This document shows, piece after piece, positions 1,142 to 63,360 of a stretch of DNA of 64,000 bases. The notes beneath the pieces were generated by a model. It was not told the origin of the DNA and ran no database searches. It saw only the letters and a list, made by a program, of their open reading frames with translations. Position 1 is the stretch's first letter; each line of letters begins with the position of its first letter. The stretch covers positions 99,696,001-99,760,000 of the forward strand of contig OX597814.1 of NCBI GenBank assembly GCA_951406725.2, in the 5' to 3' direction. The position numbers and the translations under genes were made by a program. Origin of the DNA: Octopus vulgaris. Lineage: Eukaryota.

Positions 1142-2035
1142 AATAATCGTATTTTATAAGCTTAAAGCGTATACTTGATCACCGTGCAATGAATAAAGTA
1201 AGTCTAATAATGGGGCAAATAAGCCCACAACGGAAAAAAATCAGGTTTTCACGTGCGCGTGGAAAACTTACGGTTGTTCGGTAGTGTAAGATGGTTAGCA
1301 CACTTGTGAAAACAAAGGAATGTGGGCTCGTGTCTCAGACGTACGGGAAAATCTACATTTTCCCGTCGACGTGGCTTACCAAAAACCATCGCAGTATATA
1401 TAAAAACTTACTTGGGAATGGGTGCGTGGCGTTCAATTAAATAAATATAATGTAAATAATATATATGCATATATGGGTAAAGGACGTCACTAACTGTGTA
1501 TACCACACAAAATACGAAAACAAATGCGTTAAATACGCAAACAACAAGAGAGGAAAATGGAAAACTCAGAGCACGACCCTCCAGCAGTTATCGGCTGTCT
1601 ATCTACTCCTCATTTCGAGGATTCAACGACAATGAGACTTCAAAGAAAGACGCTCCCATAAATTCTAAACTAAAATTTAGGATTTATGGAGGGTCGAATT
1701 TGGGAGCAAAACATGACAGTGCAGATATACAAGAAAACCGACCGAAAATAAACATGGCGGGTCGTTAGACCAGAACAGCAGGAAAATATGAACGGTTGGA
1801 GAAATATTTTCTTTGAAAAGAGTAAAGATAGAAGAGAGAGAAAGAAAAAGGCCAGTCTTTTGAACGTCTGTGCAAAAAAAGAAGGATGGACGATGGTCAC
1901 ATGTAAGCAACGAAAGAGAGTAAAAGACAAAGAGGGGAGATAGAGATAGATAGAAAACGATGAAAGTGGGAGGGGGAAAAAAGGAATTAGAGAAGGACAG
2001 AGGAAGAAAACAGTATAGAGTCGCATCAAAAAGGT
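1140..2035 (-). mobile_element. PLE-derived terminal-repeat element next to (TA)n
   Basis: 1405-1800 is homologous to 2835-3175, 2043-2520 and 60920-61320 (shared 'cttactt..gaa...gcgttc', 'tatgggtacaggac' and 'aatacgaaaacaaa'). It has a polypurine tract at 1810-2030 like the 3' region of the PLE at 60.2 kb and abuts the (TA)n run at 1108-1138. Confidence 0.55.
1272..1345 (+). other. Degenerate tRNA-like sequence
   Basis: D-arm GTGT..GCAC with A-box-like TAGTGTAAGATGGTTAGCA, stem CTTG/CAAAG, T-arm TGGG-CTCGTGT-CTCA. The acceptor stem is poor, so this is not a functional tRNA. Confidence 0.45.
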
Positions 2036-2042
2036 TAAGGTA

Positions 2043-2755
2043 TAATTACTTGGAAATTAATACGTTGCGTTCAATTAAGTAAGTATAAATAAATAATATA
2101 TGTATATATGTATATATGTATAGTGTAATGAATAAAATATATGCATACATACAAACATATATGTACGTACCTACATCTACATGTATATATACATGCATAT
2201 ATAAATATATATACGTGTGTACAGGACACCACAAATAGACGTAGAACTCAACGAGAAACGAAAAAGTAAAAACAGCATGGAACGGACCATATTTTTAACA
2301 ACAAAAAAACAGAGTACAAGACAACTACACAAGGAAAAATCCCCTTCATCAGCTGTCCCTAGTTCAACTCCAGCGTGTTTCGAAGGTGAGGACAGAACAC
2401 GTCTCGTCGAACTAATCCTTCCTACGAAAGAATTAAATTCCTTTGCAGAGGGGTAAAAACAAGGAAAAAAATGTGACAAAAACAGGACGTGAAAACAATA
2501 CAATTAAAAACAAATACAAAATAAAAATAAAATTACAAAAAATACAGTACAAGAAGGAATAGAAACAAGACAGGAAAACAAATAATGAGGGCCTATAAGC
2601 CTAGACGACGAAAAAATTTTCACGAGCGCAGGAAGAAACATATTTACTTGAAGAAGGCCGCCAGCGAAAGGAAGTTCGTCGACCCGGCTGTGAGAAAGAT
2701 GAGGAGGAGTGAGAGAGAGGGAGAGATAGAGAGGAAGGAAGCCAAAAAGGGTGAT
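2043..2755 (-). mobile_element. PLE-derived terminal-repeat element (same family as 60920-62262)
   Basis: Shares 'atatgtacgtaccta..tctacatgtatatat', 'ggaaaa.tccccttc.tcag' and 'tttcgaaggt' with 61000-61280. Ends at (TA)n. Confidence 0.6.
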
Positions 2756-2834
2756 ATATATATATATATATATGTATACAAATGCATATATACACACACA
2801 TGTACATACATGGACATACATGTGTATATATATA

Positions 2835-3173
2835 GGTATGCATATATGGGTACAGGACGTCAGCAACTGTGTAACCGACATGGAATACGAAAACAAACGA
2901 GTTAAATAAGCTGTCCTGTGGTTGTTTCTAACTTTGACCGTCCATAAATCCTAAATTCTATTTTAGAATTTATGGGAGTCTTTGAAGACTCATATTGCCG
3001 TTCAGTGCTTGAAATGAGGAGTAGATAGACAGCCGACAACTGATGTAGGGCCGTTTTCTGTGTTTACTTGTCCTGTTTTCTATATGTTTCTCTCGTTATT
3101 TGCGTATTTAACTCGTTTGTTTTCGTATTTCATATGGTTTACCCTGTTGGTGGCGTCATGTACCCAAATATGC

Positions 3174-3178
<5 letters not shown>
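2835..3178 (+). mobile_element. PLE-derived terminus with short inverted arm
   Basis: 2843-2907 is the reverse complement of ~3105-3170. 2935-3130 is the reverse complement of ~1510-1700. Followed by (TA)n. Confidence 0.6.
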
Positions 3179-3267
<89 letters not shown>

Positions 3268-3269
<2 letters not shown>

Positions 3270-3451
3270 CCTCGTGAGCACCGCCAGCAATTTTTTTCCT
3301 CTGTCTTCCCTTCTCGGGATCTTTCCTTCTCCTTTGTTTCCGACGAAGAGCTCCGCTCGAAACGTTAGACCCTCCTTCCCTTCTTTCCTGAGCGTCCAAT
3401 AATACTTTATTTGTTCCACGTCCTCGCGTTGCTGTGTTTTCTTGTTTGGAT

Positions 3452-3456
<5 letters not shown>
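3268..3456 (+). mobile_element. ~190-bp PLE 3'-terminus derivative with a hammerhead motif, between (TG)n and (TA)n
   Basis: Similar to the 3' end of the PLE at 60700-60895 (GAAGAGC..GCTCGAAACGTTA, TTTCCTGAGCG, AATAC). Confidence 0.65.
3336..3370 (+). ncRNA. Minimal type I hammerhead ribozyme motif
   Basis: GTTT-CCGACGA-A-GAGC tcc GCTC-GAAA-CGTT-AGAC: stem I, core variant (CCGA), stem II, GAAA, and palindromic AACGTT stem III. Confidence 0.6.
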
Positions 3457-3538
<82 letters not shown>

Positions 3539-12594: not shown

Positions 12595-13033
12595 TACACA
12601 CAGATAGAGAAATTAAGGCCAACAGACCAGATATAGTTGTCAGAGATCATAAAGAAAAAATGCTTTCTAATTGATGTATCAATACCGGCAGATGACAATG
12701 TGTCTCTAAAAGAAATGGAGAAACTCTCAAAATACAAAGACCTGGAAATAGAGGTAACCAGAATGTGGAATCTAAAAACAGAAACAATTCCTATCATAGT
12801 AGGAGCATTAGGCATGATAAAAAAATATTCAGACAAATACATAACAAAAACACCAGGACTTACAAACACATATAACATACAGAAAATTGCACTACTAGGC
12901 ACTGCACACATCCTACGCAGAACACTTTCCATACAATAACCATCAGAGCATCACAACAAATCACAGCACATACCCAAGGCACACAGAGCTGCGCTCGGTA
13001 GTGAAGTGAAAGCACGCTATAAAAATAAAACTA

Positions 13034-13036
<3 letters not shown>
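12595..13036 (+). mobile_element. 5'-truncated R4/Dong-type non-LTR retrotransposon (REL endonuclease end + 3'UTR)
   Basis: Near-identical to 14800-15247. Encodes RPDIVV..IDVSIP..EKLSKYKDL..IPIIVGALG and is flanked by (AAT)n on both sides. Confidence 0.9.
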
Positions 13037-13132
<96 letters not shown>

Positions 13133-13168
13133 AAGAAGAAGAAGAAGAAGAAAAAGAAGAAGAAGAAG
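13037..13168. repeat. Compound (AAT)n(AAG)n tract
   Basis: Direct runs between two LINE copies. Confidence 0.95.
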
Positions 13169-15372
<2,204 letters not shown>

Positions 15373-22990: not shown

Positions 22991-24114
22991 ACGCTAGTGA
23001 CTATATATTGTCGTTATACCTTTACATTTCAAGTGCATACGCTAAATGACACTTAGTAAAAGTACACATGTATAGTGTATATAAACTGAGACATTGAGAA
23101 CTCACGTTTAATATGATTTTATATCTAACACGAAAACTGCATTATCCAGTCATGATGTGAATCACTTTGTAGTTAAATAGGTTATCAGTTCTGTCAGTTA
23201 CAAATGTGTCATAATAACCTTAAGCTGTTTTCCTTCATTATCGTTCAAATTTTAGTTTTTACAATATTTTAGTATTTTCCTGCATTCTTATAGTTAAAAA
23301 TGTGATTCACCTTTTCCTACATTTTATACAGTTAAGTCAAATAGTAAATGGTAGTACCCATGATGCATCACATTGTTTTGAGACGCTGAGACTGGAGGGA
23401 GAAAGAGAGAAAATTGTCTTGAAATAAGAACCATGTCCAGTTGCTTACGAAGGTGAAACTCCTCCAGTAGCACACAAGGATCAGCTGGCGGTACTGAAGT
23501 AAGTTTCAAATTAAGTCTCCAACCGTCACACCAAAAAAGTAAATAAACGTAAAAAAATACTGCGAACCGTCCTGTTCGATTCTTACAATTCCGTCAATCC
23601 CTCGCGCTGCAATGATACTTGAATTTTTCGACTCTCTGCAAGAATTAACAACCAAAGATAATCTCAGCCATATTTGAACTCAGAATGTAGTGAATCGGGA
23701 TACCTACAATGAATTTTAGTCACGTATTTCAAAGTCTGTATACGAATTAACACTATCGTAATTTTACATGAACTAGCATTGAAACTGAAATAAAAAGCGA
23801 TTTAATTTCAAAAGCTAAACTCATCCAACTCTAAATAAGTAACACACAATGCACTTCACCCTGTTCCAGGAATCAGGAACACTTGATAATGGATTCATTA
23901 TTACATTACTGAATTGAAATACTGCAGAAACTATTAAAACATTGAAAACTGGACGTAGGAAATTACTGGTCGATATTAATTTCTTTCCAATAGATGAAAT
24001 ACCTTGTTAACAACCGAGGAATTTTAAGTCAAAATCTAGATGAACGAGACAACCTAGGATCATATATTTGCAGCACACAATCAAGTAGAATCAGTATTAC
24101 CAAAATCTGAAATC

Positions 24115-55654: not shown

Positions 55655-56240
55655 CCAATCTTTCGTCAGTCGAGTTCCAGATTATCTTTGCAGTTTCAGC
55701 TGGTTATACTTGAGACTACTCCAATCTGCCCAGCTCCAAGGAAAATCTCAGCTAAGAGCACTTGGAAGAAAGCAGCGAATGTATACGAAAACAAGGAGGG
55801 AACAAAACGGAGAAATGGTATACAAATACAAAGGCAAACAACAGGACATTAACAACAGGTGTCTTTCGACTAAGGACGAATTAAATTAAGCTGGCGTGTG
55901 TGGAAGTGAAGCCTTACGACAGAGACATAAGAGATGACAGGCATCGGAAGGAATATAGATGTTGCACGGATGGTAGTCGAACCAAGAAAGAAAGATCAGG
56001 CTTGGCCGAACACTGGTCATGTGGAAGGAGAGGAGAGAGTTAGAGACAGAGGGATAGAAGAATTAGGGAGGGACGAGAGAGACAGAGTGAAGTGAAAGAG
56101 CAGGGAAGGTGAGAATGAAGGGAAGGCTAGGAAATGTGAGAGAGGGGGAGCGAAACAAAAAAGAGTGGAAAGAACGAAGTAAGTGTGAAGGGGCTGAAAG
56201 AGAGAAAGAAAGGATAAAAGAATAAGAAAGTCGTACAAAA
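55655..56240 (-). mobile_element. Probable PLE 3' region (terminal repeat + polypurine tract)
   Basis: 55660-55735 repeats at 56410-56470 (GTCGAGTTCCAGATTATCTTTGCAGTTTC.GCTGGT). The purine tract resembles the reverse complement of a PLE 3'UTR. Confidence 0.5.
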
Positions 56241-56297: not shown

Positions 56298-56475
56298 TTA
56301 AGAAAAATACAAAAAAATGGGACAAGAACGCAATAGGCGAGAAAAATCAACCAGACGGTTAGATGATACGAAAAGGGACAAGAAAAAACAAGGACGGGTC
56401 ATTCGGAGTTTTCTTTCGTCCGTCGAGTTCCAGATTATCTTTGCAGTTTCGGCTGGTGCCCCAATCTGGCCACGT
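56298..56475 (-). mobile_element. Second copy of the same terminal repeat
   Basis: Homologous to both 55660-55735 and 30215-30290. Confidence 0.55.
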
Positions 56476-57099
56476 ATATATTTCGATCGAATCCCCAAAG
56501 GGGATCTCCTAACGATAATGTAAACTTCATACAATCAATGTATCCTTAGCCTAAAAAATAACTTGCGATCTACCCCACATTTGGATAACTTGGTATTTCC
56601 GAGGTTCCGCTCGCTATAAAACATACGTAGCCTAGATCTTATCTAGTCCATTCAGCTAGTTTTTGGACACGCATACACACACACACACGCGCAGGCACAT
56701 ACACACACACACACACACACACGCAGGCACATACACACACGCACACACACAATTGAAGAAATTGAAGTCAACAAGAAGGAGTACGGTTCGACAGTTATCT
56801 TTTCATCACTACAATTCTTTCCACACAACTTGGTTCTCCAAAATTACAGGTACGGTAATCCTTCGACTATTGCCGGTATTACGTTCCAAAAACCCTCGCG
56901 ATACGTGAAGATCTGCAAAGTAGAAAGAGTACTGTACTGTATATTTTTAAAATTACATTTAAAATTTGTATAAATTTATTTTATTATAATGCAAAACACA
57001 CCACGGAGGAATCTACGCAAACTTAAATAATAAACCGCAGTAGGTGATATGGCGTGGGATAACTGTATTTGATTATGTTTTTTTTTGTTGTTGTTGTTG

Positions 57100-58211: not shown

Positions 58212-58251
58212 CCACTGATGCGGTCACAGGAGTGTGACGAAAGAACTTTGG
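58212..58251 (+). ncRNA. Minimal hammerhead-like motif
   Basis: CCA-CTGATGC-G-GTCACA ggag TGTGAC-GAAA-GAACTT-TGG: stem I CCA/TGG, 6-bp stem II, core with A9>C. Confidence 0.55.
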
Positions 58252-58428
58252 CCGAAATAAGATTAAGATTAATGTAAAAAATAAATATCACTGAAGCAAA
58301 ATAACACCAAATATATAGTGCGTGTGTTTTTATTGGCTAAACTGGCAATATGACCATTCCGAAATATAACAATATCTGTTTCAACACACGACTTCACATA
58401 AAAAATCTTGCACAACAAATATTTAAAC

Positions 58429-58480: not shown

Positions 58481-60221
58481 CGCCGAGGCATTCCGCCAAC
58501 TCAATGACACCTCCTTCTATTCCCCTCTGCCCTCTAACCCCACACGTAGCTACCAACAGACGGTATCCTCTACTGTCCGCGACCTCATCTCGTCCTCCCG
58601 TCTCCCCCGCACCGCATCCAACCTAATTGTGCGAACCCCACGTACCCCCACCATTTACTTCCTCCCCCAAATCCACAAACCCAACAACCCTGGCCGCCCC
58701 ATCGTCTCCGCCTGTAACTGCCCCACGGAGCTCATCTCTAAATACCTCGACCGTGTCCTTGCCCCCCTAGTGGCATCTCTTCCCTCCCACATCCACGATA
58801 CCAACCATGCTCTCCGGCTTTTCAACTCTTTCTCCTTTCCTCCCGGCTCCTCCAAAATCCTTTTTACTATGGACATCCAAAGCCTCTATACTATTATCCC
58901 TCACCACGAAGGACTGCAGGCCCTTCGACACTTTCTTGACCTCCGCTCTAACCCTGTACCTGACACCTCCACACTCATTCGTCTGGCCGAACTTGTCCTT
59001 ACTCTGAACTGCTTCTCGTTCGCGGGCGAGTTCTACCATCAGTTCTCGGGAGTGGCCATGGGAACGCGAATGGGCCCCAACTATGCGAACCTGTTCGTTG
59101 GCTATGTTGAGGCCCAAATATTCTCTAATTTCACTGGTCCCACTCCTGAACTATATGGTCGTTACATTGACGACATTATCGGTGCCACCTCACTCTCCCG
59201 TGAACATCTAGATTCCTTCCTCTCTTTCGTCCAATCTTTCCATCCAGCCCTCCACTTCACTTCCACTATCTCCAACACCTCTGTCTCCTTCCTCGACATT
59301 TCGGTTAGCATTCTTCACTCCACTCTTACCACCTCCATTCACTACAAACACACAGACTCATACTCATACCTCAACTTCTCTTCCTCCCACCCAGAACACA
59401 CCAAGCTTTCCATCCCCTATTCCCAATTCCTCCGTCTACGTAGGCTCTGTATTGACGACCATGACTTTGAGACTAAGTCTCAACGTATGGCTCACCACTT
59501 CACCCTACGTGGATACCCCCTCACCACTATCCACACCGCCCTTGCCAGAGCACGGTCCGTGGACCGTGTATCTGCTCTCTCTCCCCGAACCTGCCCTGTA
59601 GTCTCCCGCCTCCCTTTTCCCCTCACTTACCACCCCACGACCCTACGTCTCCAACGCACCATTCTTCGAGCTTTCCGTCATCTCCAGTCCGACCCGTCCA
59701 CTTCACACCTCTTCCCTAACCGACCCCTCCCCTCTTTCAAACGAGCCCACAACCTTCGAGACCTTTTGGTCCATAGCTCCTTCCCTGACCCTACCTCCCA
59801 ACCCGGCTCGTTCCCCTGCTCCCGCCCACGTTGCCGCACTTGCCCTTACCTCTCCAACACCACCCGCCTCACTAGCACCCACCATCGACCCTATCCCATC
59901 ATCCACTCCTTCACCTGCACCTCCAGCAATATTATCTATTGCGTCTCTTGCTCTCTCTGCAATTCCTTGTACATCGGACAAACGGGACGCCGCTTGGCTG
60001 ACCGGTTCGCGGAACACCTTCGTGACATCCACCTTGCGAACGACACACCGGTCTCACGCCATTTCCGCTCCACTGGTCACTCCTTGCAACACCTATCTGT
60101 GTTCGGTTTGTCCTTACACAGAGGCCATCCGGATTCCCGTTTGCGCCGTGAACAGGATTTAATCTTCTCTCTTCGCTCTTATACGCCATTTGGTCTCAAC
60201 TCTCCCCACCTCCTCATCTAA
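58479..60221 (+). CDS. PLE reverse transcriptase-GIY-YIG polyprotein (partial, no start codon)
   Basis: YFLPQIHK..GRPIVS, MDIQSLYT, GVAMGTRMGPNYANLF, RYIDD, FLDI, HYKHTD..SSSHP; CSRPRCRTC; NIIYCVSCSLC..YIGQTGR..RFAEH..HF..H..LN. About 580 codons without a stop. Confidence 0.9.
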
Positions 60222-60763
60222 CCCCCCTCTCCCCCCTCCTCATCTATCCTTCATCCTTTCACCCCTACTCCCCTTCCCTTCTTCCCTCTTTCTCCCTCCC
60301 TCCTTCCCTCTTCCTTCTGCTCCCTCACTCCCCTTCTCTCTCCCCCTCCCCCTCTCTCCCCCTCTTTCCCCCTCCCCTCCTCCTCCCCTTCCTTCTCCCC
60401 TCCTCTCTCTCTCTCCCCATCCTCTCCTCTTTCCCCTCTCCTCCCCTCTTATTCCCCTCACCTTCTCTCACCCCCCCTCTTCTCCCCCTCCCCCTCTTCT
60501 CACTACACCACACGACTTTACACATCACATCATATATGATGTGCCATACTAATACATACACCAACCCCATACATACGCCTGTCCAGACCTATCCTAGGGT
60601 CATTCAACCCTATTATCAACCCTATTATATCCCCTTATTTCGCTCTCGCGTCTCATGTTTGATCTTTGACCTCTGGCCGAAATCAGATCGCCATGTTGAT
60701 TCGTTAGTTACTGCACGCATTTTTTTTCTCTCCTTCTTTCTGTGTTTTTTTTCTCTCTGTGTA

Positions 60764-60801
60764 TCTTTCTGTTGAAGAGCGTAGGCTCGAAACGTTAAAG
60801 A
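60764..60801 (+). ncRNA. Minimal hammerhead motif in the PLE terminal repeat (core variant CUGUUGA)
   Basis: TCTTT-CTGTTGA-A-GAGC gtag GCTC-GAAA-CGTT-AAAGA. Confidence 0.6.
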
Positions 60802-60917
60802 CTTGTTTTATTTATATTTCCTGAGCGCCATACTAATACAATTGTTTGTTTTCCACCTGCCTTCGTCTTTTGTCTATTTTCATAAAGCTTCCCGTTATAT
60901 ATATATATATATATATA

Positions 60918-62257
60918 TATTAAGAACAATCTTACTTAGAAAGGGATGCGTGCGTTCTGTCATATAAAAATTTAATAAATAAATAAAATATATGCATTTA
61001 TACATACATATATGTACGTACCTACCTCTACATGTATATATTCATGCATATATGGGTACAAGACACCAAAAAAACGTCGAACACAATGAGAAACGAAAAC
61101 ATAAACACAAAACCAAGGAAATGGACTTTTTTTAAAAACAACGAAAAAATAGAGTACAGGACATACAAAACAAGGAAAATTCCCCTTCTTCAGTCGCCTT
61201 AATTTCATCTACTCCACATTTCGAAGGTCAAGGCGATACATGTCTTTAATGAAATTTTCCTTCCCGCGAAAATCAAAAAAACGTCGAACACAATGAGAAA
61301 TGAAAACATAAACACAAAGTCCTGTACCCATATATGCATGTATATATATACATGTAGAGGTAGGTACGTACATATATGTATGTATATATGCATATATTTT
61401 ATCTATTTATTAATTTTTTTATATGACAGAACGCACGCATCCCTTTCTAAGTAAGATTGTTCTTAATATTAATTGATGCGCACTCTTAAACTTTCTCTCC
61501 CCTCCCTTTCCCAGCCTTCATTATTTGGGCTTTCCTTTTCTTCCACTTACTGTCTCTCTCCCTCCCTCCCTCTCTCTCTCATTCTTCACTCTTTTCTTTT
61601 TCTCTACCACCATTCCCCTTCTTTTCTCTCTTTTCCCTCTTCTTTTCTCTCCCCTTCTCTTACTCCTCCTCCTCCTCCTCCTCCTCCTCCTCCCTCCCGT
61701 CGCGGTCACGTGATGAGACGGCTATTTCTATCTTTTCTTTTTTGAACTCCGTCAAGTAGAGACGTTAACCTGTTCTCTCTCGCGTCTCAAACAATAGCGT
61801 TCGTAAAAATTTTTTATCTCGTTTGGCTTAACAGCCCTTCTCGTTTGTGCTACTGTTATTCTCCGTGTCCTGTCTTTTACCGTTTATATTTTGTACTGTC
61901 GTTACTATCCTGTTTTTGTTACCATTTTTACCCCCCGCAAAAAAACCTCAAATTTTATTTAATTTGATTTTCGCGGGAAGGAAAATTTCATTGAAGAGAT
62001 GTATCGCCTTGACCTTCGAAACGTTGAGTAGATGAAATTAATCGACTGAAGAAGGGGAATTTTCCTTGTTTTGTATGTCCTGTACTCTATTTTTTCGTTG
62101 TTTTAAAAAAATGTCCATTTTCTTGGTTTTGTGTTTATGTTTTCGTTTCTCATTGTGTTCGACGTTTTTTTGGTGTCCTGTACCCATATATGCATGTATA
62201 TATACATGTAGAGGTAGGTACGTACATATATGTATGTATATATGCATATATTTTATT

Positions 62258-62262
<5 letters not shown>
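60918..62262. mobile_element. Non-coding PLE-derived element with nested inverted repeats, between (TA)n runs
   Basis: 60918-61062 is the reverse complement of 61319-61470. ~60975-61280 is the reverse complement of ~61960-62260. Internal polypyrimidine tract at 61490-61700. Confidence 0.75.
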
Positions 62263-62309
<47 letters not shown>

Positions 62310-63159: not shown

Positions 63160-63360
63160 CTCAATCCAAACAAGAAGAAGCTAGAAAAACAACAACACGA
63201 ATACGTTGTACAAGTTGTGTTATTGAACGCTCAGTAAAGCCAAGAAAAGAGAGAGGATTTCGCGTTTCGAACGGAACTCTTCATCAGAAATATAAAATAA
63301 GTCCAAAGACGGGAAGACGGAGAAAGAAAATCACCAACGATACACATGCGGTTACATATT
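63160..63360 (-). mobile_element. PLE 3'-terminus derivative (family of 3268) with hammerhead motif at 63257-63291
   Basis: Reverse complement ATTT-CTGATGA-A-GAGT tcc GTTC-GAAA-CGCG-AAAT: canonical CUGAUGA core, cleavage triplet lost. Abuts (TA)n. Confidence 0.65.

Follow-up and report, generated by a model that had tools for sequence, protein, structure and literature searches.

A predicted hammerhead fold with an interrupted core block in the 3' tails of Naiad-type retroelements of Octopus vulgaris

Several sites in a 64,000-nt stretch of Octopus vulgaris DNA (positions 99696001-99760000 of its contig, hereafter the window) probably encode, judging from their sequences and those of their relatives in this microsatellite-rich 2.8 Gb genome, a hammerhead ribozyme that is competent as a monomer and doubly pseudoknotted, and in which the RNA chain would enter and leave the core between A9 and G10.1. 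A preliminary description of the window had named nine CUGA-type heptamers as instances of one recurrent layout, a hammerhead followed by a second CUGA. All nine are present, each at no more than 7 nt from the place given for it (Table 1), but they fall into three unlike groups. In group A (3388, 60821 and 63234), the heptamer is part of a downstream TTCC-Y-GAGCG element behind a complete minimal type-I hammerhead. In group B (62046, 61193, 2352, 3040 and 55669), each site forms a single predicted permuted hammerhead fold in which CUGANGA is the sole core strand. Group C (58291) is a CTGAAGC that follows a type-I-like motif having a C at position 9. The suggestion that a downstream CUGANGA serves as the working core of a permuted hammerhead agrees with the fold predicted for several families, but not with the focal family, A1.

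Table 1. Positions of the heptamers, folds and elements in the window
Feature	Position	Strand	Remarks
CUGA-type heptamers	3388, 60821, 62046, 3040, 58291	+	
CUGA-type heptamers	63234, 61193, 2352, 55669	-	63234 given as ca. 63227 in the preliminary description
Minimal type-I hammerhead, family A1 (focal)	60764..60801	+	predicted cut 60796/60797
Focal stem I	60764-60768/60797-60801	+	TCTTT/AAAGA
Focal core CTGTTGA	60769-60775	+	U at position 6; extra A at 60776
Focal stem II	60777-60780/60785-60788	+	GAGC/GCTC
Downstream TTCC-Y-GAGCG, family A	60817..60827	+	conserved, not catalytic core
Minimal type-I hammerhead, family A2, plus CTGAGCG at 3388	3340..3397	+	
Minimal type-I hammerhead, family A3 (decayed), plus CTGAGCG at 63234	63225..63287	-	
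Truncated (5') canonical PLE ORF	58491..60221	+	RT (RVT_1, E 3.7e-8), Cys linker, C-terminal GIY-YIG-like region
Split-core fold, family B2, intact	2346..2421	-	II5' 2421-2417; P4 5' 2414-2406
B2 copy, stem III strand	2401-2397	-	U16.1=2397; H17=2396; predicted cut 2396/2395
B2 copy, stem I, II3' and GAAA	2395-2390; 2386-2382; 2381-2378	-	
B2 copy, P4 3', stem I' and CUGAUGA	2368-2360; 2358-2353; 2352-2346	-	
Split-core fold, family B1, in inverted truncated copy	61187..61263	-	predicted cut 61237/61236; one G-U change in stem III
Split-core fold, family B1, main copy	61977..62052	+	II5' 61977-61981; U16.1=62002; H17=62003
B1 main copy, II3', GAAA and CUGAAGA	62013-62017; 62018-62021; 62046-62052	+	
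Damaged split-core copy, family B3	2974..3046	+	A9 changed, II5' partly deleted
Damaged split-core copy, family B4	55663..55735	-	ends just after core
Decayed B3 copy	1558..1680	-	absent from the preliminary description
B4-type copy	56380..56507	-	absent from the preliminary description
Non-coding B1 element of ca. 1 kb	61319..62280	+	begins with repeat of own 3' end, ends in (TA)n
Inverted 5'-truncated B1 copy	60917..61277	-	arrangement typical of PLEs
Type-I-like motif with C at position 9, plus CTGAAGC at 58291	58212..58297	+	read by eye

The strands of the fold found in the B families and in family N follow the order II5'-P4 5'-[III,U,H,I]-linker of 1-5 nt-[II3',GAAA,III]-P4 3'-[I',CUGANGA], with helices II and I each crossing P4 and III, which gives two pseudoknots. 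Covariation was assessed over 10 families of 1-43 copies represented by their commonest letters, leaving out B1b (2 copies), and cross-family counts were anchored on motifs because the families were not alignable together by MAFFT. When drawn with the strand that lies upstream, stem II is paired at 49/50 positions, the one miss being a register error in B7, and stems I and III are paired at 50/50 positions each. Swapping strands between families gave means of 30-32 for the three stems and reached the observed values in 0/20000 swaps each, a comparison that overstates independence since the families are related; collapsed to 6 lineages, the counts are 29/30 for stem II, 30/30 for stem III and 30/30 for stem I, and each ranks 1 of 720 permutations. 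In aligned copies, the stem II strand located before GAAA changes together with the strand upstream of the site block, the variants being GAAGG/CCTTC, GAGCA/TGCTC, GGCTG/CAGCC, GCGCC/GGCGC and GACAC/GTGTC. Compensation also occurs within families, in stem III of B4 (p=2.3e-7) and, by eye, in stem II of B7 copies (GGACA/TGTCC vs GGGCA/TGCCC). A separate count, made on 16 copies from 4 families with 5 B8 rows standing one column out of register in stem II, found 91.8% of cells paired (91% for P4) and 56 double changes, with 0/500 shuffles doing as well and slid controls at 12-52%.

Pairing of stem II with the bases after CUGANGA amounts to 19/50 or 26/50, against null means of 19.9 and 25.2. Since the stem II partner lies upstream and downstream pairing is at the null level, A9 is not linked to G10.1. 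These sites were first read as plain SGC, a reading given up when copies of B3 and B4 proved to have their stem II partner upstream. If C11.1 bulges, AGG on the downstream side can form 4 base pairs with CCTT in B1 and B2, as would suit an ordinary type-SGC hammerhead whose stem II is built from the bases right after CUGANGA, but this pairing falls to 0-2 bp in B4 and B5 copies and the counts over the 10 families make such a hammerhead extremely improbable.

The nucleotides C3, U4, G5, A6, G8, A9, G12-A15.1, U16.1, G10.1 and C11.1 are invariant in 10/10 families, and H17 is A, C or U but never G; family N was selected in part by a pattern in which the site and GAAA are included. Within families, the core columns vary less than the non-core ones (57/2259 vs 1271/19645), a contrast that CpG decay of the non-core columns inflates. 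The B and N families have the core bases of a hammerhead and covarying helices I-III abutting this core, while the link from A9 to G10.1, whether direct or via 1-2 bases, is lacking. The loop between stem III and P4 consists of a 3-nt bulge plus GA/GA in 7/10 families, with a variant in B1, B1c and B3, and resembles a kink-turn, whose consensus has tandem G-A/A-G pairs after a 3-nt bulge, next to a canonical stem. TTGAAGA, formerly taken for a degenerate first core strand in group B, is one strand of this internal loop between two helices, and the group B sites are without a first core strand.

These four helices are very probably real, and the B-type fold probably self-cleaves after H17. Nested minimum-free-energy folds of 5 natural copies, computed by a program that cannot fold pseudoknots, kept P4 and stem III in 2 cases and favoured rival hairpins in 3, the II5' strand of B1 pairing with a downstream 3' segment. 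With queries that started at the predicted cut, 3/29 B2 copies began exactly there and 3/29 B1 copies within about 4 nt, and with queries that started 15 nt later, 0/29 B3 and 0/29 B4 copies began at the cut. Because starts clustered near the new query edge, the signal was taken as a boundary effect, and copy 5' ends were discarded as a trace of cleavage, the B1/B2 signal not being reproduced in B3/B4. These copy ends without a cut signature, the rival nested folds and the open A9/G10.1 link would all suit a four-helix fold that derives from a hammerhead but acts as a non-cutting structural signal, for RT or protein binding or for end definition. The kink-turn-like loop could likewise bind a protein, and for a Poseidon element hammerhead cutting has been reported, in the available part of PMC11167929, as dispensable for insertion in vitro, with no read ends seen at the site. 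Such a signal is nevertheless unlikely given that the catalytic bases, the A15.1-U16.1 pair and the 'not G' at H17 have been kept in 10/10 families while the helices were rewritten.

A site-GAAA-CUGANGA descriptor with stems I and III gave 2 matches in 664 kb, i.e. the window plus 600 kb that were not motif-selected, both of them in the window; none of 20 shuffles gave any. When all six permutations were searched, the 664 kb returned 2 SGC-order matches (2352 and 61193) and 2 CGS matches, with none in 3 shuffles, and the type-II (GSC) order had 0 matches in the same sequence. The earlier proposal that the downstream strand completes a circular type II ribozyme does not fit the group B sites, in which the order is site-GAAA-core and the fold is non-circular and doubly pseudoknotted. 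The four-block descriptor found 0/120 among viral loci preselected for GGCCGAAA...CUGANGA. In Rfam, a search that had also been advised, no hammerhead was matched for 60700-60890 or 2290-2480 at E<=10, nor for the whole window among the 150 of 265 matches listed, mostly matches of microsatellites to miRNA models. The topology of the split-core fold would explain why descriptor and Rfam searches miss it.

In the accessible text of Eckert et al. 2023 (PMC10085705), Block C, which comprises the stem I strand, CUGAnGA and the stem II strand, is taken as unbreakable, leading to six orders, of which type SGC is reported from metatranscriptomes only, outside the genomes of known organisms, and type CSG from only a few soil-metagenome sequences. 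With these two types the B/N fold shares a site block that precedes the GAAA block and then CUGANGA, a short linker between stems I and II, a helix joining the far sides of both stems (P4 here, marked 'I' by these authors), two pseudoknots and a full core; it departs from them, and from type SGC in particular, in that Block C is broken at A9/G10.1. The term 'type-SGC' was found only in that paper. Neither a split Block C nor a Naiad hammerhead fold was encountered in the literature searched, including the accessible parts of PMC13725137, bioRxiv 2026.07.22.740005, PMC11167929 and PMC6155905 and excluding most subscription papers and bioRxiv supplements. No tested precedent for an open A9/G10.1 link was found in this search either, and such an opening might disable the core. 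PLE hammerheads commonly conserve one additional base that separates positions 9 and 10.1 (PMC4209133, available part), which makes an exit point there plausible without constituting proof.

The open link would also be accounted for if the genomic order were that of a precursor, in which splicing, back-splicing or a tandem junction brings A9 near G10.1 to yield a CSG-type ribozyme. By eye, GTATGT, located 5 nt after A9 in family N, resembles a donor and TTTTAG, 7 nt before II5', an acceptor, in B2 the II5' strand is immediately preceded by CAG, and Penelope pseudo-LTR introns are described as ending at the hammerhead (PMC4209133, available part), yet no donor-like site is seen by eye near A9 in B4, B7 and B8 and a precursor of this kind is highly improbable.

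The split-core fold, read as it stands in the genome, is present as 7 B-type copies in the window and as 5 more in 600 kb taken from elsewhere, i.e. ca. 8 per Mb, which extrapolates to a genome total near 23,000 within broad limits (about 8,000-54,000); genome searches returned about 2,000-3,500 first-look candidates for each of B1-B4, which are not copy numbers. Intact copies, having the core and at least 14/15 pairs, represent 33/36 of those in B2, 28/34 in B1, 18/31 in B3 and 17/37 in B4. In the main B1 copy, stem I has been shortened by a small deletion. In the same copy, 61977-61987 (II5' and the start of P4) can pair over ca. 10 bp with 62059-62068, located after the core, a possible off state. 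Between 60897 and 62290, the B1 element is nested in the (TA)n tail of the pseudo-LTR of a canonical element, one PLE type inside another, and the arrangement of its inverted 5'-truncated copy is one described for PLEs in the legend to Fig. 2 of PMC8557442 (available part). A non-LTR retrotransposon has also left a broken ORF in the window, at 13010-14873 on the + strand, in which an RVT_1 domain is recognized (E 4e-22).

Elements of the B1-B4 families are short and lack coding sequence. Their 3' end is fixed, the extent of 5' truncation differs between copies, and some copies are inverted; the shared sequence of the B elements ends within about 700 nt upstream of the fold. A TA-type repeat, common in this genome, lies at most 520 nt after GAAA in 27/28 (B1), 26/29 (B2), 21/24 (B3), 24/27 (B4), 12/12 (N), 7/10 (B7) and 6/11 (B8) copies, counts that carry no background control. 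The traits of Naiad insertion, namely a position next to (TA)n, 5' truncation of variable extent and the occurrence of inverted copies, are seen in both B and N. A search with Naiad coding residues found no Naiad ORF of their own upstream of the fold in the B1-B8 loci, and candidate coding partners were rejected since the matches come from a SINE inside the query. The B1-B8 elements are likely non-autonomous passengers, and a Naiad-type protein is somewhat favoured as the agent that moves the B elements. Intact ORFs ca. 30% identical to the Naiad RT were set aside: they belong to C-terminal-endonuclease elements, in which 700 nt of 3' UTR showed no fold of this kind. Loci L238-L241 (C18, C12, C7, C3) represent a Penelope-like family that is young, its open frames of 750-780 aa encoding an RT plus a GIY-YIG-like region at the C-terminus, and no hammerhead was seen by eye in 700 nt of their 3' UTR.

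The link to Naiads comes from family N. A 23-nt motif of Naiad_Ovul has 151 exact matches in this genome and 0 for a control, and the split-core fold lies 1.0-2.1 kb downstream of a Naiad RT, on the same strand, in 12/20 loci (10 picked for having the motif). One locus (L412) displays N-terminal GIY-YIG, CxC, DKA and YIDD motifs in the Naiad order, a match made by motif in broken copies, and another (L419) has CxC, DKA and RT together with part of the fold motif; by motif, family N has the N-terminal GIY-YIG, CxC, DKA and C-terminal RT of Naiad PLEs. In the available portion of Craig et al. 2021 (PMC8557442), Naiads are reported as being without a canonical hammerhead, and eight of them, Naiad_Ovul included, are marked 'HHR_half_core'. 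The 'HHR_core' and 'HHR_half_core' marks of that source concern the same elements and the same place, with CUGANGA in the 3' UTR and GAAA 35-50 nt to either side, but the portion available proposes no fold, whereas here helices are assigned and covariation-tested. The consensi of that source, 54 in total, were read by eye around CTGATGA (60/62 places), CTGAAGA (43/43), CTGACGA (20/23) and CTGAGGA (20/25), a reading that was not computed and that misses motifs split by a line end. The four-block form was recognized in 11 places, in Naiad_Amil, _Aacu, _Anas, _Obim and _Ovul and at six further places, one of the 11 having a stem I of 2-3 bp and one a weak stem II. Six nematode Naiad 3' motifs, including those of Naiad-1, -2 and -3_Nbra, read by eye as type CSG and carry the helix closing Block C. 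The fold was not seen by eye in the bivalve, hemichordate or fish parts of the consensi. In arthropod Naiads, CCCC-CUGANGA occurs by eye in other arrangements, and one of these runs from a site block through a stem II hairpin and GAAA to stem I and the core, which may be a further split-core order.

The focal site is a known dimer-type minimal hammerhead of a canonical PLE and is separate from the split-core fold. Minimal type-I PLE hammerheads have a short stem I, an extra base between positions 9 and 10.1, G10.1-C11.1, a palindromic stem III and a location in pseudo-LTRs, and family A corresponds to this motif of Cervera and de la Pena in all these features as listed in the available part of PMC4209133; A1 differs from it by U6, and the B families by a full stem III and another strand order. 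At the focal site, the strand order, the extra base after A9, G10.1-C11.1 and the palindromic stem III (ACGU) are all present, with GAAA and H17=U also found 3' of stem II, and the A expected at core position 6 is replaced. The site lies ca. 540 nt 3' of the RT ORF, inside the 3' pseudo-LTR of the element, and in a copy 97% identical to the window element (L045) the focal pseudo-LTR repeat flanks both sides; together, the window ORF and the L045/L044 copy place it in both pseudo-LTRs of an element with RT and C-terminal endonuclease, the GIY-YIG-like region of the ORF having been called by motif with no Pfam match. After the focal site, 60831-60887 (+) contains a branch-point-like TACTAAT, a pyrimidine tract and AAG, which could be the end of a pseudo-LTR intron.

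Family A copies were taken from loci already collected from this genome, not from a genome search with the focal stretch, and comprise 68 matches, 58 of which were parsed, 49 with the downstream element and 9 without a match to it. In subfamily A1, U occupies core position 6 in 24/26 copies while A2 and A3 have A: this U is a trait of A1, not decay, and may lower or abolish hammerhead activity. A2 often has C at core position 4 (12/20 copies). Stem II is identical in all three subfamilies, across which TTCC-Y-GAGCG is spaced at 19-40 nt and is less variable than its flanks, a comparison biased by the anchor regex, which itself favours conservation. In this element, the equivalent of G8 is C in 46/49 copies, that of A9 is G in 44/49 and the U of CUGA is C in 11/49. 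As C and G stand where G8 and A9 are needed, GAGCG is not a core strand, and the idea that the focal CUGAGCG supplies the core of a type-II or intermolecular hammerhead was abandoned. Y-GAGC is complementary to GCTC-G, which together with its retention in three subfamilies would also agree with a decoy for stem II, but RNAfold gives this pairing a probability of only 1-9% and the element is absent from another type-I family (5 copies). As an explanation of the focal family, core completion or decoy is very improbable, and a decoy role assigned to the string by itself is doubtful. At the group C site, position 9 of the motif at 58212-58251 is C throughout the 4 copies found, and a relative (L231) carries A9. 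No partner strands were seen by eye for the CTGAAGC at 58291, which is not a core. A second GAAA occurs in the motif (58212-58260), and the TGGCC upstream of it offers the stem II 5' strand another possible partner.

For the split-core fold, the arrangement proposed here would be a circularly permuted CSG/SGC cycle; with its three outer links all closed, the chain ends would have to lie in the core. The ribozyme would likely cut at a single site of the 3' tail, in RNAs of both Naiad-type retroelements and their short non-coding passengers, the kink-turn-like loop bending stem III into P4. No dimer would be needed, since stem III is a full 5-bp, non-palindromic helix. After cutting, stems II, III and P4 would keep the 5' piece bound, which may make the cut a regulated nick. 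By analogy with pseudo-LTR hammerheads, its role could be the processing of tandem or read-through transcripts, here without a dimer; processing of tandem precursors has been proposed for other PLE hammerheads (PMC4209133, available part).

Taken together, these data moderately favour a seventh natural hammerhead topology, with chain ends exiting from the core, that would be active and would represent the missing ribozyme of many Naiads across animal phyla, nematode Naiads having kept the CSG form, the tandem pseudo-LTR duplication of which would have led to the split-core form. If so, non-circular hammerheads would be abundant in animal genomes, with roughly ten thousand or more copies here, and would move from uncultured metatranscriptome RNAs into these genomes. 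The split-core fold contradicts the stated assumption of an uninterruptible CUGANGA block, enlarges the set of possible hammerhead topologies and is a candidate answer to why Naiads seemed to be without the ribozyme of other PLEs. The occurrence of CSG and split-core forms in one retroelement clade would provide a natural series for the evolution of RNA permutation.
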